Positions 20,734 through 32,226 of a stretch of 64,000 bases of DNA are shown here, piece after piece. Each line of letters begins with the position of its first letter. The first letter of the stretch is position 1. The position numbers and the translations under genes were made by a program. Origin of the DNA: an uncultured Candidatus Peregrinibacteria bacterium (GTDB taxonomy: Bacteria > Patescibacteriota > Gracilibacteria > Peribacterales > Peribacteraceae); the NCBI GenBank assembly GCA_903854335.1, contig CAINVY010000010.1:69060-133059 (forward strand), written 5' to 3'. Below the pieces are notes generated by a model, which was not told the DNA's origin, ran no database searches, and saw only the letters and a list, made by a program, of their open reading frames with translations.

Positions 20734-21762
20734 TCACTTTGCCATCGTCCCCATCACGTTCGCGAGGATTTGCGCCATCTCTGCTCGCGTGAGGGAGGCG
20801 GCTCCGTGGAAAGATCCTTGCGGCATGTTGATCCATCCTGCGAGGATGGCCATGCGCACAGAGTTCGCGTGGGAGACCGAGGCGGGAATGGCATTCCAAA
20901 CTGCGGTGTACTCCACCTGAGACTTCGACTTCAAGATCTGCTGCAATCGGTCTGCGTACGCATTAGCGAGAGCCTGGAGGAACTGCCCCTTCGTCACGAC
21001 CGACCCGTCCGAAGGAAGAGCATCGTCGATGGAGGAGAGATCAATACCCAGTGCAGTGAATGCCGCCTTTGCATCTGCAGTCGAGACTGTCCCGGCCGGA
21101 TCGAAACCACCATCGGCTCCGAGCGTCATCCACCCCTTGCTCACAGCTTCCGAGGCAGCCTGCGCATACCAGCTACCAGCGGAAACGCCCGGGAACGGTT
21201 GCGATGCGGAATGGAAGGGAAGCGTGGGAACGGAAGAAGCCCCCGACTGCGCAAGGCGTTGCTGCCTACGCAGGAGCGCACGTTGCTCTGCTGGTGAAAG
21301 CGAAGAGGGAGCCCCTGTCGGCTGGAGAGCCCCGGGAGCACTGGTCGGAGCGAGGTTCTGTTGCTGCCCCTTTACCACCGGAGTTCCCCCGATGTCCGTT
21401 CCATTTCTGTTCGTCCCGCCAGTCGTACCTCTGCTGCCGCCAGTACTGGGCGCAGAAGGGGTCGAAGATGAGGAAGTCGAGGGCCTTGCGCTTAGCGGTA
21501 TCCAGTCCGTCGAGACCTTGTACGAGAGAGAACACGAGCCTCCGCCATTGCTGCAATTGAAGGAGATCCACCCAACCTTGTCCCCCCATGCGTAACCGGA
21601 GAAGTTCCCCGAGGAATCAATCGTCACGGCGACGCTCAGGCGCGAGGACGACAAGCTCACACCCGAGCAGGAAGCCGGGATCACGGAGGCCTTACGCCTC
21701 GCGTCCCTCACATCCGAGGACGACGTCTCTTCTACTTCTCTTCCCTCACCAGACAATGGCAA
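20734..21762 (-). pseudogene. 5'-truncated surface-protein gene (SLH-like C-terminal region)
   Basis: The ORF opens at a TTG, directly at the start of the terminase-like gene, and has no signal peptide. It carries extracytoplasmic features: a GYAWGDKVGWISFN motif, a Ser/Thr/Gly-rich linker, and SLH-like WYAQAASEAVSKGWM and SLTRAEMAQILANVMG. Confidence 0.55.
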
Positions 21763-23369
21763 CGCCTAGGTTCAGTTCTTTCGTGCGCACAATGTGCGAG
21801 CGGATGCTCCATGATCGTCCTTTTCGCAAACAGGTCGTTCGCAAGAGCCACTACTGGTTCTTCCACTTCTACTTCCATCACTACGTCAAACACAAGACTG
21901 CCGCCTTCCAACGGCAGATGTTCCAGATGACGGAGAACGAACTTCTTAGACTCATAGCCATCACGGCGTTCCGTGGGTCAGGCAAGTCGACGATCATGAA
22001 CATGTCGTTCGTTCTCTGGGCGATCCTGGGTATCCGCAAAAAGAAGTTCGTCCTGATCGTCGGGCAGACCCAAGCCCAAGCGCGGCAGCACCTTCGAAAC
22101 ATCAAGGAGGAATTGGAACATAACAAGATTCTTCATCGAGATTTGGGGCCCTTCCGCGAAGTGGAAGACGAGTGGAGAAACAGTTCACTCGTGATACGAA
22201 ACTTCGGTGCCAAGATCATGGCCGTCAGTATCGACCAAGCGGTGCGGGGACTTCGTCATGGACAGTACCGACCGGACTTGATCATTTGTGATGACATCGA
22301 AGACCTCGATTCCGTCCGCTCCCTTGAGGGGCGGGACAAAACGTACCGCTGGGTGAAGGGCGAACTCCTCCCCGCTGGAGACACGGACACCACAGCCGTC
22401 TTCATTGGAAATCTGCTCCACGAGGATTGCCTCTTGAAGCGATTGCAGCAGGAGATTGAAAGTGGAGCGATGGAAGGCATGTATCGGGAATATCCACTCG
22501 TGAGTCCAGACGGAACGTGCTTGTGGTCGGGCAAGTATCCGACTCCGGAAGCGATTGATGCCGAACGCAAGAGAATCGGCAGTGCTTCCGCATGGCACCG
22601 GGAGTATTTGCTCACGATCCTCCCCGACCACGAGCGCCTCATCCATCCCAGCTGGATCCGGTACTACGACTGTCTACCGACTGATACCGAGGATGAACCG
22701 CTTCGCCTCGCTGCCACGGGAATCGACCTCGCGATCTCTCAGAAGGACAGCGCCGACAAGACGGCAATGGTCTCGATGAAGCTCTACGGGTTTGGGGGCG
22801 ACATGCGGCTCTACATCCTCGCCAATCCCGTCAACGAGCAGCTGACCTACCTTCAGACACTCGAGAGGGCGAAGGACGTGTCTCGCGCCGTCGGCGGAGG
22901 CGAGCGGACAAAGCTCTACATCGAGGAGGTCGGCTACCAGTCGGCATTGATTGAGCAATTGAAATTCGACGGCTTTCATGTCGAAGGCGTACCCCCGAAA
23001 GGCCAGGACAAGCGTGCGCGACTTGCCCTCGTCACGCACCTCATCCAGTCCGGCAAGGTGCTCTTCCCTCGTGCAGGCTGCGAGGCGCTCATCACGCAGC
23101 TCACGGGCTTCGGAAGTGAGCGCTATGACGACCTCGCCGATGCCTTTGCAGTCCTGCTCCTGCCGTGCCTCGAGTGGCAGGGCGGATCGCATGCATGGGT
23201 CTGGGAGCTCAATGACAAGCTCACGAAGGAGGAGCAGCTCAAGGAAGAGCGCAAGCGCAGCGGCTTCTTCTATCCCGATCACAGCGACGACAGAGACGGT
23301 GGTTCCTGGTGGGGACAGAGTGCGCTCGGCCCCCTTCACGGCACCAACATTCTCAATGAGCGGTTCTAA
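21756..23369 (+). CDS. terminase large subunit-like ATPase-nuclease, paralog 1
   Basis: Walker A AFRGSGKST. Walker B-like DLIICDDIED. C-terminal RNase-H-like acidic motifs ATGIDLAIS, YIEEVGYQ and YDDLADAF. ATG 21756 chosen by alignment with paralog 2. Confidence 0.7.
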   Translation: MATPRFSSFVRTMCERMLHDRPFRKQVVRKSHYWFFHFYFHHYVKHKTAAFQRQMFQMTENELLRLIAITAFRGSGKSTIMNMSFVLWAILGIRKKKFVLIVGQTQAQARQHLRNIKEELEHNKILHRDLGPFREVEDEWRNSSLVIRNFGAKIMAVSIDQAVRGLRHGQYRPDLIICDDIEDLDSVRSLEGRDKTYRWVKGELLPAGDTDTTAVFIGNLLHEDCLLKRLQQEIESGAMEGMYREYPLVSPDGTCLWSGKYPTPEAIDAERKRIGSASAWHREYLLTILPDHERLIHPSWIRYYDCLPTDTEDEPLRLAATGIDLAISQKDSADKTAMVSMKLYGFGGDMRLYILANPVNEQLTYLQTLERAKDVSRAVGGGERTKLYIEEVGYQSALIEQLKFDGFHVEGVPPKGQDKRARLALVTHLIQSGKVLFPRAGCEALITQLTGFGSERYDDLADAFAVLLLPCLEWQGGSHAWVWELNDKLTKEEQLKEERKRSGFFYPDHSDDRDGGSWWGQSALGPLHGTNILNERF

Positions 23370-23398
23370 TTTTTACTTCTTTCTTTCCCCTTTTTTGT

Positions 23399-24892
23399 AT
23401 GACCACCGATCACCTCACCCCAGACATCAAGAAGCGCATCCTGACCGATCAAATCTTCCGGCGTGCGCTCACGCGGGAGAACCATTACTGTTTTTTCCAC
23501 GTTTACTTCGGACATTACGTGACGTCACCCACGGCTGCATTCCAAAAAGAAATCTTCGGATTCACCGAAGATGAATCCCAGAAGCTCACGGCGATCACAG
23601 CCTTCCGAGGCTCTGCGAAGTCCACCATCATCTCGCTCTCATTCCCTCTCTGGGCAATCCTCGGCAAACCCGGCGTGAAGTTTGTGTTGATCCTTGGACA
23701 GACGCAGTCGCAAGCTCGCCAGCACCTGAAGAACCTGAAGGATGAGATCGAACGAAACGCCCTCCTCCGCAAAGACCTCGGACCGTTTGAGGAGCGCGAG
23801 GATGAGTGGAACTCCTCGTCCATTGTGCTGCCTCTGCTCGGCGCACGTATCACGGCAGCATCGACTGAAATGAGTGTGCGAGGCATTCGACATGGACCGT
23901 ACCGCCCCCAGCTCATCATCTGCGACGACATCGAAGACCTGCAGTCGGTGAAAACGAGAGAAGGGAGAGACAAGACCTACCAGTGGCTCATGGGCGAAGT
24001 GATCCCAGCGGGAGGGCAGAAGACGCGGACGTTTCTCATCGGAAACCTCCTGCACGAAGATTGCTTGCTTAAGAAATTTGAGCGGCACATCCAAGACGGC
24101 TCCATGAGTGGAGTTTACCGAGAGTATCCGCTACTCGATGCTCACGGGAAGGCGCTGTGGCCCGGGAAGTACCCGACCGAGGCATCCATCCTCGAAGAGA
24201 AATCACGCATCGGGAGTGAGGCGGCATGGCATAGGGAATTCTTGCTGCGCATTCTCGCAGACACCGAGTGCGTCATTCATCCCGGATGGATTCAGTACTA
24301 CGAGCAATTCCCGGCTGAACAGAATGGTTGCCATTTCCACTGTACGGGGACGGGCATCGACCTTGCCATCTCCCTGAATGACAGCGCGGACTTCACCGCG
24401 ATGGTGTCGGCGAAGCTCTACTTCATCGATGGGAAAATCCGCATCTTCATCCTGCCCAATCCCATCAACGAGCGCCTCACGGCGCTCGATACCCTCGAGC
24501 GTGCCAAGCAGGTGGCCGACATGACGGGCGGCGGCGACAAGTCCATTCTCTACATCGAGGACGTCGGCTATCAGTCCTCCTTGGTGGAGCATCTGAAGGA
24601 GAACGGCAATGAAGCCGAGGCAGTGAAGGTGAAGGGGCAGGATAAGAGGGGTAGGCTCGCGCTCACCTCGCATGCCGTCCAATCCGGCCAAGTGCTCTTT
24701 CCGAGGGAAGGGGCAGAAAACTTGATCGCCCAGCTCGTGCATTTCGGCGTTGAGAAGCATGACGACTTGGCTGATGCCTTCTCACTGCTTATTCTCAAGG
24801 CGCTTGAGGAGCGACAAACGAGCGTCGGATTCTGCATGATCGGATTCGATGGCTCCGTGCACGGATGGGACAGTGTGCGTGGCAAATACTAG
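23399..24892 (+). CDS. terminase large subunit-like ATPase-nuclease, paralog 2
   Basis: Collinear with paralog 1; roughly half the residues are identical by eye. AFRGSAKST, QLIICDDIED, GTGIDLAIS, YIEDVGYQ, HDDLADAF. Confidence 0.7.
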   Translation: MTTDHLTPDIKKRILTDQIFRRALTRENHYCFFHVYFGHYVTSPTAAFQKEIFGFTEDESQKLTAITAFRGSAKSTIISLSFPLWAILGKPGVKFVLILGQTQSQARQHLKNLKDEIERNALLRKDLGPFEEREDEWNSSSIVLPLLGARITAASTEMSVRGIRHGPYRPQLIICDDIEDLQSVKTREGRDKTYQWLMGEVIPAGGQKTRTFLIGNLLHEDCLLKKFERHIQDGSMSGVYREYPLLDAHGKALWPGKYPTEASILEEKSRIGSEAAWHREFLLRILADTECVIHPGWIQYYEQFPAEQNGCHFHCTGTGIDLAISLNDSADFTAMVSAKLYFIDGKIRIFILPNPINERLTALDTLERAKQVADMTGGGDKSILYIEDVGYQSSLVEHLKENGNEAEAVKVKGQDKRGRLALTSHAVQSGQVLFPREGAENLIAQLVHFGVEKHDDLADAFSLLILKALEERQTSVGFCMIGFDGSVHGWDSVRGKY

Positions 24893-24936
24893 ATTGGAAG
24901 GAGTTTTAAGGGCAATGAAAGGAGGATTCAAACATC

Positions 24937-24966
24937 AAAGCCGCTTCCTGACGGAAAGCGGCTTTT
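24937..24966 (+). terminator. intrinsic terminator after the terminase-like pair
   Basis: aaagccgc (24937-24944) pairs with gcggcttt (24958-24965), with a 13-nt loop. The stem runs into a tttt tract. Confidence 0.6.
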
Positions 24967-25062
24967 GAGCGATATTTCGATGCTCAAAGCGGGCTTTTGC
25001 GCTGGATACCAAGGGGATATTGCGGCATTGCTGTGAGTACCTATTTCCTTCCCACATTTCCT

Positions 25063-26430
25063 ATGGAAATCGCCTCCCTCAACAAGAGACGTGCTCAAAA
25101 AACACCAACGATCGAGACGGTTCACATCGATCTCACGCCCCCCTTCGACAAGTCGACAGGGGCAGTGCGCTACTGCTTGTATGCAAGGAAATCGAGCGAG
25201 GATGACGAGCGACAGGCGCTCAGTATCGATTCCCAAGTGAAGGCAATGTTGGAACTCGCCAAAAAGGAAGGGCTCGAGATTGCGGAGGTACGAAGAGAAA
25301 GCCACTCAGCGAAAGCAACGAGCGGGCGTCCGGTGTTCAACCAACTCGTCATTGATATCCGGAGTGGAATGTTCAACGGATTGCTGACGTGGGCTGCAGA
25401 CAGAATTTCTCGAAACGCCGGAGACCTTGGAAGCGTGATCGATCTCATGGATCAAGGTCACTTAACTGAGATCCGTTGCCACAGTCAGCGGTTTACCAAT
25501 AACCCCAATGAGAAATTTCTACTCATGATTCTTTGCAGCCAGGCGAAGCTCGAGAACGATAATCGAGGGATCAATACGAAGCGGGGCATGAAGACGAGGG
25601 CCGAGATGGGACATCGCCCCTGTATCCCTGCCTTAGGTTATGCTCTGGAGAAGCGACCGGAGGACAAGAAAAACAGAGTCATCCCTGATCCAATCCGAGG
25701 AGCATTCGTGAGACAGGCCTTTGAGAAGGTGGCCTATCAGCATACATCGGGGCGGCAACTCCATCGATGGATGCAGGAGGTGGGATTCACAACGAAGCTA
25801 GGGAGGGTCATTACACTGAGCATGATTTACAGGATGCTGAGAAACTCTTTCTATACGGGGAAGTTCGAGTACCCGGTCGGGAGCGGGAATTGGTATCAGG
25901 GCACCTACGAACCGCTCGTCCCTCAGCATCTCTTTGAAGAGGTCGGAAAGGTACTCGATATGGCACCGAAGAAGAAATGGGGCACGAAGGAATTCGCCTT
26001 CACAAAGATGATGATCTGCGGACAATGCGGATCCGGGATCACCGCCGAGGAGAAGCACAAGCGGATGAAAGACGGAAGCATACGGAAGTACGTGTACTAC
26101 CGCTGCAGTCACGCGAAGGATCTCACCTGCAAAGAAGGATCGATACGGGAAGACGCATTACTGGAGCGACTGCTAGAAATCATCGACGAGGTGGACCTGG
26201 ATAAGCTGGGGATGAAACAGCGCCTCCAAGAGGAGGTGGCACGCTACGAGAAATTCACGACAGGAGTCTTGGGGCAGACAGTCGGAGCGAAGATGCCAAA
26301 GGTCGATATCAAGACCTACGCGAAGTACATCCTGCAACAGGGAAAGATGGAGGAAAAACGCGAGCTGCTCTCCTGCCTAAAAAGCAAACTGGTGCTGAGG
26401 GATGGAATCCTGGAACTTACAAAGTCCTGA
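25063..26430 (+). CDS. large serine recombinase (integrase)
   Basis: Resolvase catalytic domain YARKSSEDDERQALSIDSQ and LLTWAADRISRN. A recombinase domain. Zinc ribbon CGQCGSGITAE...YYRCSH. Coiled-coil C-terminus. ATG 25063; the track start at 24997 is TTG. Confidence 0.85.
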   Translation: MEIASLNKRRAQKTPTIETVHIDLTPPFDKSTGAVRYCLYARKSSEDDERQALSIDSQVKAMLELAKKEGLEIAEVRRESHSAKATSGRPVFNQLVIDIRSGMFNGLLTWAADRISRNAGDLGSVIDLMDQGHLTEIRCHSQRFTNNPNEKFLLMILCSQAKLENDNRGINTKRGMKTRAEMGHRPCIPALGYALEKRPEDKKNRVIPDPIRGAFVRQAFEKVAYQHTSGRQLHRWMQEVGFTTKLGRVITLSMIYRMLRNSFYTGKFEYPVGSGNWYQGTYEPLVPQHLFEEVGKVLDMAPKKKWGTKEFAFTKMMICGQCGSGITAEEKHKRMKDGSIRKYVYYRCSHAKDLTCKEGSIREDALLERLLEIIDEVDLDKLGMKQRLQEEVARYEKFTTGVLGQTVGAKMPKVDIKTYAKYILQQGKMEEKRELLSCLKSKLVLRDGILELTKS

Positions 26431-26438
26431 TGCAGGAT

Positions 26439-27656
26439 CTACTGGCCCATACTTCGATAGACGCTCACCCAATCCGTACTGATCTCCCGCTGTGCCTCGG
26501 AAAGCGTCATGGAGCCGCTGCAGAGCTGTTGATGGAGATAATTTTCGACTTTGTCTTTCTCGTGAAAACCGGGAGAAGGTTCGGCGGCCTCGGGAAAGAG
26601 ATTCGCAATATCATTTGATCCGCCGAGTTCCAGACTGATGAAGTGATCGACTTCATACTCACCCGTGCTATGCGTCTGGATACCATATTCTGTATAGACT
26701 TGATTCTTCGTCGACTCGGAGACGGAACGCACACCGCTTGAATAGCCGGGAGTGCAGACCTCATCAGCAGTCACGCTGAATACCGCTCCCGGCGTGCAGG
26801 CATGATCGGGGTAGGAGCCGTTCACCAGACACCCGGACGTCTTCGTCCGGGGATCTGGCTGGAAGGAAAGATCATTCGAGGAAGAAAGAGGATTTCCATT
26901 GAGTGCGTTATACAACCACTGCGTGACCTTGCCGCGCGAGATCATCTCACCTGCATTGAACTCATCTGCGGTCACGATTTGCTGCTGCTCGGCGGTGCAG
27001 AGATACATGCCGTACCACTGGCTCTGGTCGCACTCGGATCCGGCGGAGACCTTGTCCGCCGCTACGAGGCTCACGACGATCATCTTCAATGCCTCTGCGT
27101 CATTGAGATTGTTCTCCGGATGAAACTGCCCGTCCGGGTACCCTTTCACCCATTGCTGGCTTGCCGCGTAGCAGACGTAAGACGTAAACCATCCCTCTGT
27201 GACGTCCGGAAAGCACCCGGCGGCTGTTGTCGGATCCATCTTGAGACCACCCTTCACGAGGATCTTCATCAACTCCGCGCGGTTGATGGAACTGTCGGGA
27301 CGAAAGGTTCCATCGCTATATCCTTGGATGATGCCCGTGTCCTTCGCCCAGCTGATTGCAGTGGCGTACGGGGAGGACGCGGCGACGTCGCTGAACGTCG
27401 TACTCGGGGTCGGCTCTACGGGCGACGGGGCCTCGCTTGATGAAGCAGAGGAAGCCTTCGGCACCTCGCAGGTGCAGCTGGGACTTTGGCTACCATCATT
27501 GCAAAGGAAGTAGCCGGTGTTCGGATTACAGCGGTCTACGCCGCCATGACGGGAACAGCAGCCAGCTTGTGCGTACGCGGACGATGCGAAGAGGAAGAAA
27601 AAGAAGCTGCTCCCGAAAACAATGAGCAGCCTCGAAAATGGGATCGGATGATCCAT
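26439..27656 (-). CDS. secreted SLH-domain protein with C-terminal HNH-type nuclease domain
   Basis: Signal peptide ending SSAYAQA. Cys-rich GCCSRHGGVDRCN...CNDGS. SLH-like repeats FSDVAASSPYATAISWAKDTGIIQGYSDGTFRP and FPDV...WVKGYPDGQFHP. C-terminal EVDHFISLELGGSNDIANLFPE. Confidence 0.7.
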   Translation of the reverse strand: MDHPIPFSRLLIVFGSSFFFFLFASSAYAQAGCCSRHGGVDRCNPNTGYFLCNDGSQSPSCTCEVPKASSASSSEAPSPVEPTPSTTFSDVAASSPYATAISWAKDTGIIQGYSDGTFRPDSSINRAELMKILVKGGLKMDPTTAAGCFPDVTEGWFTSYVCYAASQQWVKGYPDGQFHPENNLNDAEALKMIVVSLVAADKVSAGSECDQSQWYGMYLCTAEQQQIVTADEFNAGEMISRGKVTQWLYNALNGNPLSSSNDLSFQPDPRTKTSGCLVNGSYPDHACTPGAVFSVTADEVCTPGYSSGVRSVSESTKNQVYTEYGIQTHSTGEYEVDHFISLELGGSNDIANLFPEAAEPSPGFHEKDKVENYLHQQLCSGSMTLSEAQREISTDWVSVYRSMGQ

Positions 27657-27973
27657 AAGGAGGAAGGGAAGGTGGATAAGACCGACCCCGAGCATCCCAA
27701 AAGGGACAACCCCGGAGGCAGGCTACCCACATTCCCATGCCTGTCGGCACGTTCAGTGGCTGCGCAGGGTTGCCCCTTACGACACTGAAGTGCTAAAAAT
27801 GACAGGATTATGGGAATACTGAGAACATGGGTAGCGAGCCCAATTTAGCGTAGGCAGAGGCGAATGTGTAGTCGTCTTTGCGAATTCACCATCGACAAAA
27901 TGCAACTCTCTTTCGGTGAGGAAGCGTCTCGAAAATCGAAGGGAAATGAACTCGAAATTCTCATGTGGCAATC

Positions 27974-28802: not shown

Positions 28803-28877
28803 TGGCAGCCCCACGGGGAATTGAACCCCGGTTTTCAGGATGAGAACCTGATGTCCTAGCCACTAGACGATGGGGCC
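28803..28877 (-). tRNA. tRNA-Glu: tRNA-Glu (anticodon CUC), CCA encoded
   Basis: The reverse complement GGCCCCATCGTCTAGTGGCTAGGACATCAGGTTCTCATCCTGAAAACCGGGGTTCAATTCCCCGTGGGGCTGCCA folds as a 75-nt cloverleaf. Acceptor 7 bp, D stem 4 bp, anticodon stem TCAGG/CCTGA with loop TTCTCAT, T arm CGGGG-TTCAATT-CCCCG. Confidence 0.9.
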
Positions 28878-30198: not shown

Positions 30199-30289
30199 GG
30201 AAGAAAAGAGAAAGACGGGCTTCAGGATAGCACTATTGTCCAGAATGGAATGTCATTCTTTCTCAAAGCGGAAAATATATTTCTTTCGT

Positions 30290-30725
30290 GGGGGGTGAGG
30301 GAACCTTGTTCGGTTCCCTACACCCCCCACACCCCCGTTACCCTCCTAACGGTAACAATCTTTGGAACTATCAGAGTTGGAAGTGGGATATCCAGTGGGA
30401 ACCATGGAATTTTGTTGTTTGTTGCGCTGCGGCGCGAAACAAAAAACAAACACCCATCGGTCGGAGCCGCGCGCCAGGGGGGTGGTGGGGGAGGCCCTGT
30501 GTCGCGCAAGCGACACGTCGCCGACAAGCGGCAGCGAAACCTTGGAGCTGCCGCGAGGAAGGCGCAGAGCCGAGCGGAGGAGCGTTGGCGCGCGGAGCGC
30601 TTTCTTCGTCCTTCTTTCTCGCCTTGAGAAAGAAGGACAAACGATATTCTTGCCCTGACAAAGAAACAGAAGCCCCTGAGAAAAAAGGACAATCATTATT
30701 TTTGCCCTCAGAAAGAAGATCAAAA
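30290..30725. repeat. composite hairpin/repeat locus (mosaic related to 11997-12416, 49957-50212 and 56486-56628)
   Basis: Long hairpin 30290-30328 (ggggggtgagggaacc / ggttccctacacccccc). Module 30519-30592 is an inverted homolog of 12063-12135. Perfect 12-bp-stem hairpin gtccttctttct-cgccttg-agaaagaaggac at 30608-30638. ttgccctga(c/g)...aaagaa motifs are shared with the other loci. Confidence 0.8.
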
Positions 30726-30777
30726 AAAACGAGTTTGCCTCCCCTCGAATAGAAGTCGATATACAAACCTCACCAAG

Positions 30778-32226
30778 TTATTTTCTCTGCAACAGCGCCA
30801 CCGTCTCTATATGCGACGTGTGCGGGAAGAGATCTACCGGCTGCACGGTGCGCAGCTCGTACCCCGCCTTCAGGAATTCGCCAAGATCGCGCGCGAAGGT
30901 CGCCGTGTTGCACGAAACGTAGACGACTTTCGAAGCCTTGTGATCGATGATCGCCTCCCGCGCCGCGGGATGGAGGCCCGGCCGGGGAGGATCGACGACG
31001 ATGGTATCGAATGCGTACTTGCCTCCGGCCTTCAGCTGCTGATGAAGCACCTGCTCCGCCTTCCCCTTGTAGAAACTGATATTGCCGATGCGATTCTTGC
31101 CCGCGCTGCGCAGCGCATCTTCGATGGCGGAGGGATTGCTCTCGACACCGACAACCTTCTGGCAGAAGCGCGCCAGGTACTGGCCGATCGTGCCCATACC
31201 GCAGTAGGCATCGAGCACAGTATCGCGCATCGTGAGGTCCGCGGCTTCCGCAATCGCACGGTAGAGCTTTTCCGCTCCAAACGTATTCGTCTGGAAGAAA
31301 GAGAACGGCGAGATCTCAAAGGAAAGATCGAAAAGCCGCTCGGTGATCGTCGGCTTTCCGTAGAGACAATGCACCTTCGGAAACTCCGGTTTGTCATTAG
31401 CCCCCATGTGTTCCACAACGAGCAGCGACGCCAGGTGCGATCGCCCGCCGAAGAATCGAATAAACGTTTGGAAGAGAGGCTCGAGTTCTTTTTTGCGCGC
31501 CTGCACAAGGAAACAAATCATCTGTTCACCGGTGTGCACGCCGCGCCGAAGCAAGAGCGTGCGCAACATGCCTTTCTGCGTCTTGGGATTGAACACCGGA
31601 AGCTTCGTCTCCTGCATGAACGTACGCACTTGTCCGAGGAGCATCCCGACCTGTTCATCGTAGAGGTGGCACTCGGTCACGGGCGTCACCGTCGACCACT
31701 GGCCGGGCTTGTGAAAACCGATCGTCGGATTTTCATCGATGAAGACGCGCTTTCCTCCCTTGTCCTCCGAGCGCATCTCCTCGTACCCGAAACTGAACTC
31801 CATCTTGTTGCGATAGTGAAACACCTGCGGACTCGGAATGATATTGAGGACGCGCCCGGGAAGATTCTTCCTATCCGCCTCGTCGATAGGCGTGAGGTGG
31901 GACAGCGTCTCACGCACGATGTCTTCCTTATAAGAGATCTGTTTGTCGTAGGGAAGGTTCTGCCACACGCATCCGCCGCAGTCGTGGAAGTGCGGACAAC
32001 GAGGGAGGACTTCGTCCTTGGCCTTGCGCACAACCGAACGAACCTTGGCCTCCGCGAAGGAATCCTTGCGCTTGGTAATCACAATTTCGACCACCTGGCC
32101 GGGAATGGCATCGGTGACGAAGATCGGGAGGCCGTCGATGTGCGTGAGGCCCGCACCGCCGAACGTCACTTTCTCAATAGTGACGCTATGCGACTGTCCT
32201 GGCACAACCTGTGAGGGTATTGACAT
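30778..32226 (-). CDS. 23S rRNA (uracil-5)-methyltransferase, RlmD/RumA family (TRAM + SAM-MTase)
   Basis: N-terminal TRAM-like domain. Fe-S Cys cluster CPHFHDCGGCVWQNL. SAM-binding LDAYCGMGTIG. C-terminal VYVSCNTATFARD. Confidence 0.85.
   Translation of the reverse strand: MSIPSQVVPGQSHSVTIEKVTFGGAGLTHIDGLPIFVTDAIPGQVVEIVITKRKDSFAEAKVRSVVRKAKDEVLPRCPHFHDCGGCVWQNLPYDKQISYKEDIVRETLSHLTPIDEADRKNLPGRVLNIIPSPQVFHYRNKMEFSFGYEEMRSEDKGGKRVFIDENPTIGFHKPGQWSTVTPVTECHLYDEQVGMLLGQVRTFMQETKLPVFNPKTQKGMLRTLLLRRGVHTGEQMICFLVQARKKELEPLFQTFIRFFGGRSHLASLLVVEHMGANDKPEFPKVHCLYGKPTITERLFDLSFEISPFSFFQTNTFGAEKLYRAIAEAADLTMRDTVLDAYCGMGTIGQYLARFCQKVVGVESNPSAIEDALRSAGKNRIGNISFYKGKAEQVLHQQLKAGGKYAFDTIVVDPPRPGLHPAAREAIIDHKASKVVYVSCNTATFARDLGEFLKAGYELRTVQPVDLFPHTSHIETVALLQRK

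Follow-up and report, generated by a model that had tools for sequence, protein, structure and literature searches.

The window, i.e. the whole 64-kb stretch of DNA analysed here, harbors a compact cassette of phage-type genes on the plus strand, which is framed by two host SLH-domain genes on the minus strand. The features of the locus are:

20734-21600, minus strand: host SLH-domain surface-protein gene, left border of the cassette (ORF list)
21596-21769, plus strand: 3' remnant of a TerS-like small-terminase gene, last ~50 codons (tblastn, alignment and local TerS profile)
21756-23369, plus strand: TerL-A, large terminase of 537 aa with ATPase and RNase-H-like nuclease domains
23399-24892, plus strand: TerL-B, paralogous large terminase of 497 aa, 57% identical to TerL-A
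24937-24966, plus strand: stable hairpin in the gap between the TerL-B and recombinase genes, with TTTT on its 3' side
25063-26430, plus strand: large serine recombinase, 455 aa from ATG 25063 (Pfam and PHROG)
26439-27695, minus strand: convergent host SLH-domain gene, right border, with its stop 8 nt from the recombinase stop

Terminases, recombinase and their surroundings

The two terminase reading frames, which are 29 nt apart, were found exactly where the sequence-only reading had placed them. As described there, they encode collinear paralogs (57% identity over 479 aa in BLASTP), and all of the motifs quoted for them are present, namely AFRGSGKST / AFRGSAKST, LIICDDIED, TGIDLAIS, YIEEVGYQ / YIEDVGYQ and DDLADAF. 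Profile searches, which had been proposed as a check, assign both proteins to the PHROG family phrog_38, 'terminase large subunit' (1.8e-72 and 6.7e-67). The Pfam domain Terminase_6C is matched by TerL-B with 24.9 bits, above the cut-off, and by TerL-A with 22.1 bits, just below the cut-off of 22.6. In Foldseek, an AF2 model of TerL-B (pLDDT 78) matches the terminases of PhiV-1 (T7-like), D6E and T4 (gp17), and it also matches the nuclease domains of G20c, RB49, P74-26 and Sf6. The closest match is the PhiV-1 terminase (8dgc) by structure and T7 gp19 (4bij) by sequence. The N-terminal part of both paralogs is predicted to form an ASCE ATPase with Walker A Lys, Walker B Asp and catalytic Glu; the residues K74, D176, D177 and E179 (TerL-B numbering) are found in both and are conserved in at least 95% of cassette TerLs and at least 92% of phage TerLs. 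The C-terminal RNase-H-like nuclease retains its acidic residues D321, E387 and D455/D456/D459, which are invariant.

The long C-terminal tail of TerL-A contains FYPDHSDDR and finishes with the peptide NILNERF, whereas the tail of TerL-B is unlike it; altogether, 38 differences between the paralogs are fixed. Unlike phage TerLs, cassette TerLs have long tails at the C terminus that close with a conserved peptide, and they may thus dock on something besides a standard portal. In two-domain fold and catalytic residues the cassette TerLs resemble the T7-like / phrog_38 terminases of tailed phages; in contrast to these they are long-tailed, have no adjoining portal gene and are duplicated in Peribacteria.

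The third gene encodes a large serine recombinase, as proposed earlier, with a Resolvase catalytic domain carrying the nucleophilic Ser (PF00239, 3.2e-21), a Recombinase domain (PF07508, 4e-10) and a zinc ribbon (Zn_ribbon_recom PF13408, 1.7e-9). Its PHROG match is the integrase family phrog_95 (2.8e-58), and the motif LYARKSSEDDERQALSIDSQ is present in its sequence. Translation probably starts at ATG 25063 and not at 24997, where the open frame begins, judging from gene calls on other contigs. The protein shares the catalytic pattern Y-x-R-x-S ... S-I-D-S-Q, the recombinase domain and the zinc ribbon with large serine recombinases of the SPbeta SprA/YokA, TP901-1 and SpoIVCA type; however, its match to the SprA and TP901-1 structures is weak and distant (E ~1e-7, catalytic domain only). 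In relatives a 71-aa gene without family match often lies 3' of the recombinase; it is missing from the window.

The hairpin at 24937-24966, formerly described as a clean hairpin with a T-tract ending the two-gene unit, is real (-19.8 kcal/mol, z -3.2), but just four T follow and a terminator scan made no call, so that it is possibly a weak terminator. The reported lack of virion genes was borne out, since local profiles for portal, protease and capsid of related phages match nothing in the six-frame translation of the window. Ten unannotated ORFs of the window gave no matches against PHROGs, and the rest of its genes are, by eye, host housekeeping in appearance.

Deletion of the 5' part

A full-length small terminase is missing from the window, in line with the sequence-only reading, but positions 21596-21769, overlooked in that reading, encode the last ~50 residues of a TerS-like protein. 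This remnant is 57-60% identical to TerS of the related loci L008, L001 and L013 (tblastn, E 1e-9 to 1e-10) and is matched by a local TerS profile (E 3.7e-7). It overlaps the start of TerL-A in the same way as in intact elements, and upstream of it an in-frame stop and unrelated sequence are found. Homology with related elements ends at ~21600-21623. The adjacent SLH gene has apparently lost its 5' end, its signal peptide/N-terminal region being absent by eye, and it has no PHROG match; the sole reason why its open frame extends as far as 21762 is that it crosses the TerS remnant in antisense direction. Neither a methyltransferase gene nor c8, a conserved unannotated gene immediately upstream of the methyltransferases in Peribacteria copies, occurs anywhere in the 64-kb window. 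The full gene set is present in L007, the closest relative.

Of the element, only the sequence from the final ~50 TerS codons onward escaped the deletion, which also claimed the 5' end of the host gene next to it. Contrary to what had been assumed, the three genes do not make up a complete unit but form the 3' portion of a larger conserved element, and the region 21596-26430 is very probably a 5'-truncated member of a family with the order methyltransferase-TerS-TerL-recombinase. With TerS, methyltransferases and the upstream promoter region lost, the copy in the window can probably no longer package itself.

All data derive from metagenome assemblies; the left junction of this copy is known from one contig only, and the right junction between recombinase and SLH gene is also present on independent contigs. 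A search for the empty site turned up only short contigs bearing the identical junction. No border repeats around the cassette were found in a repeat search; for serine integrases, long repeats are not expected to remain.

A family of capsid-less integrative elements in Patescibacteria

Related loci are widespread (~240, mostly in the ultra-small Patescibacteria/CPR) and define a family of conserved, small, phage-derived, capsid-less integrative elements, for which no publication was found in the literature and which is apparently undescribed so far. In the complete unit, a ParB-domain N6/N4 DNA methyltransferase (ParB_N and N6_N4_Mtase domains), often accompanied by a second methyltransferase, is followed by a TerS-like HTH protein (Pfam HTH_Tnp_1_2, 8.7e-8; TerS PHROGs, ~1e-8), by one TerL or, in Peribacteria, two, by cargo and by the large serine recombinase. 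Upstream of the methyltransferases there is often a divergent LexA/CI-type (LexA/S24) repressor with a small regulator. The upstream clusters c8, c24, c35, c40, c43, c62, c63 and c67 have no Pfam or PHROG matches. The cargo comprises zero to ten genes, including restriction-modification and other defence genes, membrane proteins and a diversity-generating retroelement, and is typical of mobile elements.

The gene order recurs across many CPR classes. A methyltransferase lies immediately upstream in 71 of the 75 genome loci; for 64 of them the sequence continues downstream for 3 kb or more, and 56 of these 64 have a co-oriented recombinase there. None of the 75 contains virion genes. Eighty metagenome loci display the identical order, again without virion genes (0/80), and nearly all of 52 loci reached via a recombinase search contain MTase-TerS(-TerL) and none a virion gene. 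The survey of other genomes and metagenomes called for earlier shows that the recombinase co-occurs with the terminase cassette and virion genes do not. Routine presence of portal and capsid genes beside the pair in relatives, which would have spoken for a simple decayed prophage, is not observed (0 of ~240 cassette-type loci). While the genome that encodes a canonical TerL also provides its TerS partner and a portal/capsid module, the window has the TerS remnant only, and in its relatives TerS is present and portal/capsid never.

Flanking genes of the relatives are non-syntenic and the chromosomal sites differ; one MAG contains two copies of the element. No primase or replicase domain occurs among the conserved neighbours, and no circular or excised form among ~290 loci. 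The only terminal repeat, in L050, falls within paralogous RHS-like genes and probably represents an artefact.

Viral contigs with TerLs of up to 50% identity show the order MTase-TerS-TerL-portal-protease-HK97 capsid, the portal belonging to phrog_2662 (1e-130). TerL identity to these uncultured phages with portal and HK97 capsid is 33-50%, and the best GenBank phage match to a cassette TerL is only 27.5% identical. Catalytic residues are common to cassette and phage TerLs. Judged by these sequences, the element family is phage-derived.

In a tree calculated by neighbour-joining only, phage TerLs are placed outside the cassette clade, and TerL-A and TerL-B form orthologous groups, the former with orthologues in L007-L012 and L020. 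The duplication is old within Peribacteria. Single-copy elements have an A-type TerL (L013, L014) or one that is sister to the B clade (L018, L021, L091), and independent duplications are seen in L049 and L001. The recombinase tree and the TerL tree are discordant. As had been supposed, neither TerL is decayed: both are intact with all catalytic residues kept, and dN/dS, although dS is saturated for many pairs, amounts to 0.05-0.12 for TerL-A, 0.03-0.10 for the better conserved TerL-B and 0.03-0.1 for the recombinase. All three genes are under purifying selection. In L242 and L231 a phrog_2-type TerL, from an unrelated TerL family, occupies the usual TerL slot, and TerS-only variants with an empty slot exist. 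Together with dN/dS, these replacements and variants indicate that selection acts on terminase function.

Possible modes of action

The explanation that fits best is a phage-derived, helper-dependent (satellite-like) integrative element, of which the window holds a disabled copy; we give it about an even chance. For the family, this corresponds to the minimal integrative element or satellite of the sequence-only reading, but the three genes of the window are not the whole unit. Since the 5' part is deleted in the window, the tidy remnant proposed as another possibility is partly right too; however, what has been left behind derives from a capsid-less element rather than from a prophage. Several observations count against the satellite-like element: the missing replication module, the lack of circular or excised forms, the tails peculiar to cassette TerLs, the steady association with methyltransferases and the defence-island surroundings, which would suit a defence or addiction role as well, and a MAG in which the shared block extends beyond the recombinase.

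The satellite mechanism itself, for which an even chance is the upper limit, involves a hypothetical helper phage. The serine recombinase would integrate and excise the element, the helper would supply procapsids and the element's own TerS would recognise element DNA, which the element TerL would cut and pump into the helper capsids. Such a satellite would bring a whole terminase and not TerS alone. The methyltransferases may serve either to protect DNA that is transferred or to control the packaging cut. TerL-A and TerL-B would each be complete enzymes, most likely representing two docking/cutting specificities and not an obligate heteromer.

PICIs/SaPIs and marine VEIME/PICMI-type satellites are likewise small and integrated, combine an integrase and a repressor or regulator with defence cargo and with a TerS of their own that redirects packaging, and are devoid of tail and lysis genes. 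The family shows the PICI-like combination of integrase and packaging-redirection genes without capsid, tail or lysis genes; of this, the window retains integrase and TerLs, with TerS truncated. Unlike those satellites, the family has a full TerL, sometimes two, in addition to TerS, always has a ParB-methyltransferase, uses a large serine instead of a tyrosine integrase and lives in CPR bacteria, where its dependence on a helper is putative. It also differs in having no recognisable primase/replicase module; a PICI-like replication module of its own (primase/replicase plus origin) is not found. Satellites encoding their own large terminase with TerS, the cf-PICIs, have reportedly been described by Alqurainy et al. 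in 2023. They share the joint presence of TerL and TerS with the family but also have genes for portal, protease, capsid and head-tail connectors, which are absent from all loci of the family, and steal nothing but tails. Serine recombinases are used by some VEIMEs and by PLEs (PMC9618062). Tentatively, the family could be the first satellite system of CPR/Patescibacteria phages, with a new 'terminase-only' design that combines a TerS+TerL holoenzyme and methyltransferases and dispenses with capsid, tail and replication genes; the diverged TerL pair of Peribacteria could then dock on two different helper portals or contribute a second nuclease directed at helper DNA.

Alternatively, the loci may be defence or addiction islands, in which methyltransferases mark self DNA or pac-like sites, TerS/TerL serve as a sequence-directed ATP-dependent nuclease that cuts unmodified invaders, sabotages phage packaging or kills element-losing cells, and the recombinase merely moves the island. 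This is unlikely, albeit overlapping with the satellite model, because satellites interfere with helpers too. In its favour, practically all loci for which upstream sequence exists have a methyltransferase; restriction-modification, Shedu, Druantia or NurA/HerA genes are frequent as neighbours or cargo; replication genes and circular forms were not seen; the tails of cassette TerLs are not shared by phage TerLs; and L024 and L027 possess an extra second terminase-nuclease-like domain. However, TerL-A, TerL-B, TerS and the recombinase have no matches in PADLOC-DB 2.0, where only the methyltransferases are recognised, by generic type II MTase models. Moreover, real phages share the MTase-TerS-TerL order beside portal and capsid, where it is a packaging module, TerL may be swapped for another family or missing while methyltransferase and TerS are retained, and all ATPase motor residues are conserved, not the nuclease residues alone.

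It is quite improbable that the elements package in situ, in a lateral-transduction or GTA-like manner, i.e. without excision, the terminase initiating headful packaging at a chromosomal pac site and filling capsids from another source, thereby exporting adjacent host and cargo DNA. The failure to see excised forms and the position of cargo and defence genes directly downstream of TerL, in packaging direction, are compatible with this, and phages and PICIs are documented to move defence genes by lateral transduction (PMC12829572). The conserved, selected integrase points to excision and integration instead, the capsid source is hypothetical, and the present data fit the satellite model equally.

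Ordinary decayed prophages, each locus being a temperate phage minus morphogenesis and lysis genes, are less probable still. The genes are clearly phage-derived, the window's copy is demonstrably a deletion product, and many such contigs are catalogued as viral in IMG/VR. Decay should leave structural or lysis remnants, pseudogenes and variable content; however, portal/protease/capsid remnants are found in 0 of ~240 cassette-type loci, the core order is identical over many CPR classes, dN/dS is 0.03-0.12 with purifying selection on TerL-A, TerL-B and the recombinase of the window, phage TerLs stand apart from the single clade of cassette TerLs, and repeated joining of TerL and integrase is not expected from random decay.

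Least probable is a host-domesticated heteromeric TerL-A/TerL-B motor-nuclease, also raised in the sequence-only reading, that would serve the cell in DNA uptake, export or repair: CPR bacteria depend on DNA uptake, and the paralogs, with 38 fixed differences and distinct tails, have stayed adjacent across speciation events while under purifying selection, but elements with a single type of TerL are common, the TerL slot is replaceable or empty, the distribution is patchy with multiple copies possible and differing chromosomal sites, the pair is tied to integrase, cargo and, in many cases, a divergent LexA/CI-type repressor, and its partner genes are lost from the window's copy.

Gene content and truncation of the cassette in the window

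The cassette is composed of two tandem large terminase genes (TerL-A and TerL-B), a large serine recombinase gene and, at its 5' end, the remnant of a small terminase (TerS) gene.

Features of the cassette and its left border (window coordinates)
Left of the cassette, minus strand: SLH-domain host gene without N-terminal signal region
21596-21769: TerS-like remnant, the last ~50 residues of a TerS-like protein, overlapping the TerL-A start codon
21756-23369, co-oriented with TerL-B: TerL-A (open reading frame, phrog_38, Pfam terminase RNase-H-like domain)
23399-24892, co-oriented, 29 nt from TerL-A: TerL-B (open reading frame, phrog_38, Pfam, AlphaFold2 model)
24937-24966: stable hairpin (-19.8 kcal/mol, z -3.2), then just TTTT
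Start ATG at 25063 (according to gene calls on independent contigs): large serine recombinase (Pfam)

The sequence-only reading had described two co-oriented, collinear TerL-like frames followed by a large serine recombinase. The coordinates of this arrangement hold: TerL-A and TerL-B are collinear with 57% identity over 479 residues, and the recombinase displays all three hallmark domains. The proposed placement in the terminase family is confirmed by profile and structure searches. Matches to PHROGs phrog_38 'terminase large subunit' cover almost all of each paralog (E 1.8e-72 and 6.7e-67), and both also match the Pfam terminase RNase-H-like domain. The top structural matches of the TerL-B AlphaFold2 model (mean pLDDT 78) are large terminases only, namely PhiV-1 (T7-like; 8dgc at 1e-14), D6E and T4 gp17, and the model also matches the nuclease domains of G20c, RB49, P74-26 and Sf6; in a sequence comparison, T7 gp19 is the closest protein of solved structure. 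Of the 'clean hairpin with a T-tract' said to end the two-gene unit, the stable hairpin stands, but it is followed by only four T residues and was not called by the terminator scan.

Profiles built from related phages detect no portal, protease, HK97-type capsid or other head gene in the six-frame translation of the 64-kb window, and ten unannotated window ORFs yield no match to virion PHROGs, in agreement with the reported lack of portal and capsid genes. The other window genes appear by eye to be ordinary host genes. The further claim that a small terminase is missing has to be revised, since the same profile search detects the TerS-like fragment. In translation the fragment reads ...VTATLRREDDKLTPEQEAGITEALRLASLTSEDD... 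and can be aligned to the C-terminal ~50 residues of TerS-like proteins from relatives, which are 150-170 aa long (57-60% identity, E about 1e-10); its overlap with the TerL-A start is exactly that of intact elements. Upstream of the remnant lie an in-frame stop and unrelated sequence, and DNA homology to relatives starts at ~21623. The open frame of the left-flanking SLH gene is extended only by antisense reading through the TerS remnant. Remnant, stop and clipped SLH gene together identify the cassette as the 3' part of a larger unit cut by a deletion, which also clipped the neighbouring host gene.

The window copy is thus a truncated member of an element family and not the complete orphan trio it had been taken for. 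Among the matches listed, its closest relative is locus L007 (TerL-B 82% identical), which has every gene of the set, among them an intact TerS of 159 aa, whereas the window copy lacks an intact TerS, both methyltransferases and the upstream region of the operon. Owing to these losses it is probably not self-packaging, and it should be annotated as a disabled (truncated) copy.

Relaxed selection on the truncated copy was considered and rejected, since dN to common outgroups is equal for the window and L007 (window/L007: TerL-A 0.27/0.28 and 0.29/0.29; TerL-B 0.15/0.14 and 0.16/0.16). Compared with the intact copy in L007, none of the three window ORFs has accumulated additional amino-acid changes, so that either the deletion is recent or the genes are still constrained or serve a purpose, such as acting in trans with another copy. 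The window genes are under purifying selection, with dN/dS values (unsaturated dS only) of 0.05-0.12 for TerL-A, 0.03-0.10 for TerL-B and 0.03-0.10 for the recombinase; TerL-B is the more conserved copy.

Look-ups with TerL-B and the right-flank gene for an empty site or an untruncated allele gave only contigs of 1.7-4 kb with the same junctions, and the look-up of the left-flank 247-aa gene found no record. The exact locus is present in other assemblies only as such short contigs (L143-L146, L279, L280), breaking inside or beside the cassette, which suggests strain heterogeneity or repeats at this position. A repeat search for att sites around the cassette recovered only the TerL-A/B paralogy and chance matches. 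The sole tRNA of the window, tRNA-Glu(CTC) at 28803-28877 (minus strand), is situated 2.4 kb downstream of the recombinase. Between two minus-strand genes, a gene-free stretch of ~580 bp (30200-30780) has open frames in all six frames; Rfam yields no match in the cassette or in this gap, in the latter even at permissive thresholds.

A capsid-less element family of phage ancestry

Homologues of TerL-B number in the thousands and stem mostly from CPR metagenome-assembled genomes (MAGs); at least 561 relatives were confirmed in species-representative genomes and at least 530 in metagenome contigs. The names attached to the nearest homologues place the host in Peribacteraceae (Peregrinibacteria, CPR). 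The loci fetched, 79 in species-representative genomes, 57 in IMG/VR and 80 in metagenome contigs, with 52 more obtained by a recombinase search, were processed by ORF calling, clustering of neighbours and cluster annotation. Every locus stems from a metagenome assembly. Several MAGs, including those of L035, L047, L028, L058, L067 and L076, are titled Gammaproteobacteria, Bdellovibrionales or Pacearchaeota, labels which are doubtful because near-identical TerLs occur in Patescibacteria-labelled MAGs (for example L034 versus L035).

The recurrent gene order begins with a ParB_N-N6/N4 DNA methyltransferase of ~430 aa, in many cases followed by another methyltransferase of ~257 aa, and continues with an HTH protein of ~146 aa (Pfam HTH_Tnp_1_2, 8.7e-8; several TerS PHROGs at about 1e-8), TerL and a co-oriented large serine recombinase. 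A methyltransferase lies directly upstream in 71 of the 75 genome loci with a TerL ORF, and the recombinase is present in 56 of the 64 with enough downstream sequence, abutting TerL in 30 of these 56 and separated from it by one to ten cargo genes in the other 26. Cargo includes XRE-type regulators, type II, IIG and III restriction-modification systems, an SNF2+PLD protein, a KAP NTPase, an Ltp-type lipoprotein, small membrane proteins and a diversity-generating retroelement. The signature of the latter (RVT_1 + bAvd), along with the KAP NTPase and the lipoprotein, is seen between TerL and recombinase at L035:13418-15070 and in other cargo regions, and type IIG systems paired with SNF2/PLD genes also occur in this position. 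In many loci, a divergent LexA/S24-peptidase repressor is located just upstream of the operon.

Divergent repressors (LexA_DNA_bind + Peptidase_S24)
L068:6976-7626, minus strand
L075:7024-7683, minus strand
L019:5500-6147, minus strand
About 12 metagenome loci

This repressor could be borne by the element as an SOS-type switch, or could reflect preferred insertion beside host lexA.

Portal, protease and capsid genes are found in none of the genome, metagenome and recombinase-seeded loci. The sequence-only reading had named portal and capsid genes routinely lying beside the pair in relatives as one observation that would overturn it; no cassette-type locus carries portal or capsid. Such genes do occur in IMG/VR contigs encoding a TerL with 33-50% identity to TerL-B. 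These contigs share the methyltransferase-TerS-TerL order and are real phages: after TerL come, in turn, a portal/MuF fusion gene (phrog_2662, 1e-130) and genes for a prohead protease, an HK97-type capsid protein and other head components. In a neighbour-joining tree all cassette TerLs fall into one large clade with the phage TerLs outside, and every catalytic residue is common to both groups; among deposited phage genomes, no TerL exceeds 27.5% identity. Shared order, tree and residues establish the phage ancestry of the module, and the family looks like a phage packaging module that came together with an integrase and subsequently diversified across the CPR.

Terminase variation and mobility

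Orthologues from across Peribacteria (L007-L012, L020, several IMG/VR contigs, L147-L149) group into one clade for TerL-A and one for TerL-B; this duplication is ancient, both paralogs having been retained through speciation. The paralogs are distinguished by 38 fixed differences scattered along the protein and by unrelated C-terminal tails. A-type tails are long, with FYPDHS(D/G)DR and a terminal (D/N)IL-x-M-x-F peptide that also ends many single-copy cassette TerLs; phage TerL tails are short. Elements with a single A-type TerL (L013, L014) or a single TerL sister to the B clade (L018, L021, L091) exist, and judging from these gene contents each paralog seems able to work alone. Independent tandem duplications are found in L049 (Saccharimonadia) and L001; a second terminase module has been acquired repeatedly.

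TerL variants in related loci
L024:9947-12103 and L027:3367-5529 (Peribacteria elements): normal A-type TerL with an extra ~230-aa C-terminal domain, 718-720 aa
L242:1780-3060 and L231:8529-9854: unrelated TerL family (phrog_2, 8e-39) between the same TerS and recombinase

The extra domain of L024 matches a PHROGs 'terminase' family (phrog_24361, 3.6e-17); profile comparison with the cassette TerL alignment gave no match, and Pfam saw just one nuclease domain. The fused domain may therefore be terminase-nuclease-like, though of another family than the cassette TerL. Six loci (L237, L250, L255, L262, L232, L244) have no TerL between TerS and recombinase, which is the classical satellite arrangement. 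That TerL can be swapped or missing points to selection on a terminase that recognises the element rather than on any single nuclease. Long-retained tandem TerLs, exchange of TerL families at a single position and the fused additional nuclease domain are uncommon traits that provide a natural experiment on terminase specificity.

Flanking genes are non-syntenic between relatives, and one MAG (USDE_maxbin.105) harbors two diverged copies, L010 and L012, with ~18 kb in common at 73% identity. Moreover, window and L024 recombinases share 85% identity, whereas the L024 TerL reaches only 55-61%, indicating modular exchange. Together these observations point to a mobile element. The block common to L010 and L012 includes, downstream of the recombinase, a type III restriction-modification pair and a gene for a tRNA_anti-like OB-fold membrane protein; the element may thus extend beyond the recombinase.

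All fetched loci were screened for terminal direct repeats as a sign of circular or excised forms; the 80 metagenome loci yielded none, and the only hit was L050 (Falkowbacteria, 17,334 bp, 44-bp repeat), which carries methyltransferase-methyltransferase-TerS-TerL and two tandem serine recombinases. As a circular form L050 is doubtful and was set aside as a probable assembly artefact, the repeat lying inside two paralogous RHS-like genes.

The satellite reading, its rivals and implications

Of the three readings offered from sequence, the minimal integrative element or satellite is favoured, and for the complete element a helper-dependent satellite has close to an even chance of being correct. 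The serine recombinase would excise the element, its own TerS would recognise element DNA, and its own TerL would cut this DNA and translocate it into the procapsids of a helper phage; the methyltransferases might shield the DNA in the recipient host or regulate pac cleavage, which in phage P1 is controlled by methylation. The reading is weakened by the unusual TerL tails, by the absence of recognisable replication genes among the annotated element genes and by the failure to find an excised form among the screened loci.

A defence or addiction role of the methyltransferase-terminase pair, partly compatible with the satellite model, is a clearly less likely alternative, and PADLOC returned no match for TerL, TerS or recombinase among known defence systems. 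The lack of excised forms among the screened loci would fit in-situ packaging or lateral transduction, which nevertheless is considered improbable. Plain prophage decay is very unlikely given that no cassette-type locus retains a portal, protease or capsid gene; the remnant reading is true only of the window copy, as a remnant of a capsid-less element. Least probable of all, by a shade, is a host-domesticated TerL heteromer, since elements with a lone A-type or B-sister TerL exist.

By analogy, the nearest functional counterparts of the satellite envisaged here would be PICIs and the marine VEIME/PICMI satellites, which combine integrase, regulator, TerS and cargo; the element family, as seen in its genes, shares such parts. 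It differs in combining TerS with TerL (sometimes two TerLs) and a constant ParB-methyltransferase, with no capsid genes and no recognisable replicase, in CPR bacteria. Capsid-forming PICIs encode TerL together with a full head module, in contrast to the TerL without capsid genes found here. Serine recombinases are used by PLEs and some VEIMEs (PMC9618062). A full-text literature search found no published description of the family, and according to a 2025 preprint (10.1101/2025.02.15.638363), whether viruses of CPR bacteria also have satellites is unknown. With its widespread and easily recognised four-gene signature of ParB-methyltransferase, TerS, TerL and serine recombinase, the family would allow this question to be addressed with virome and long-read data that already exist.

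IMG/VR lists many capsid-less cassettes situated in CPR chromosome fragments as viral genomes (L086-L100, L227-L278), owing to the status of TerL as a hallmark gene. These are probably false-positive virus calls set off by TerL, and TerL-based counts of CPR 'prophages' are probably inflated. The family also supplies related large serine recombinases by the hundred, enzymes that attract interest for use in genome engineering.
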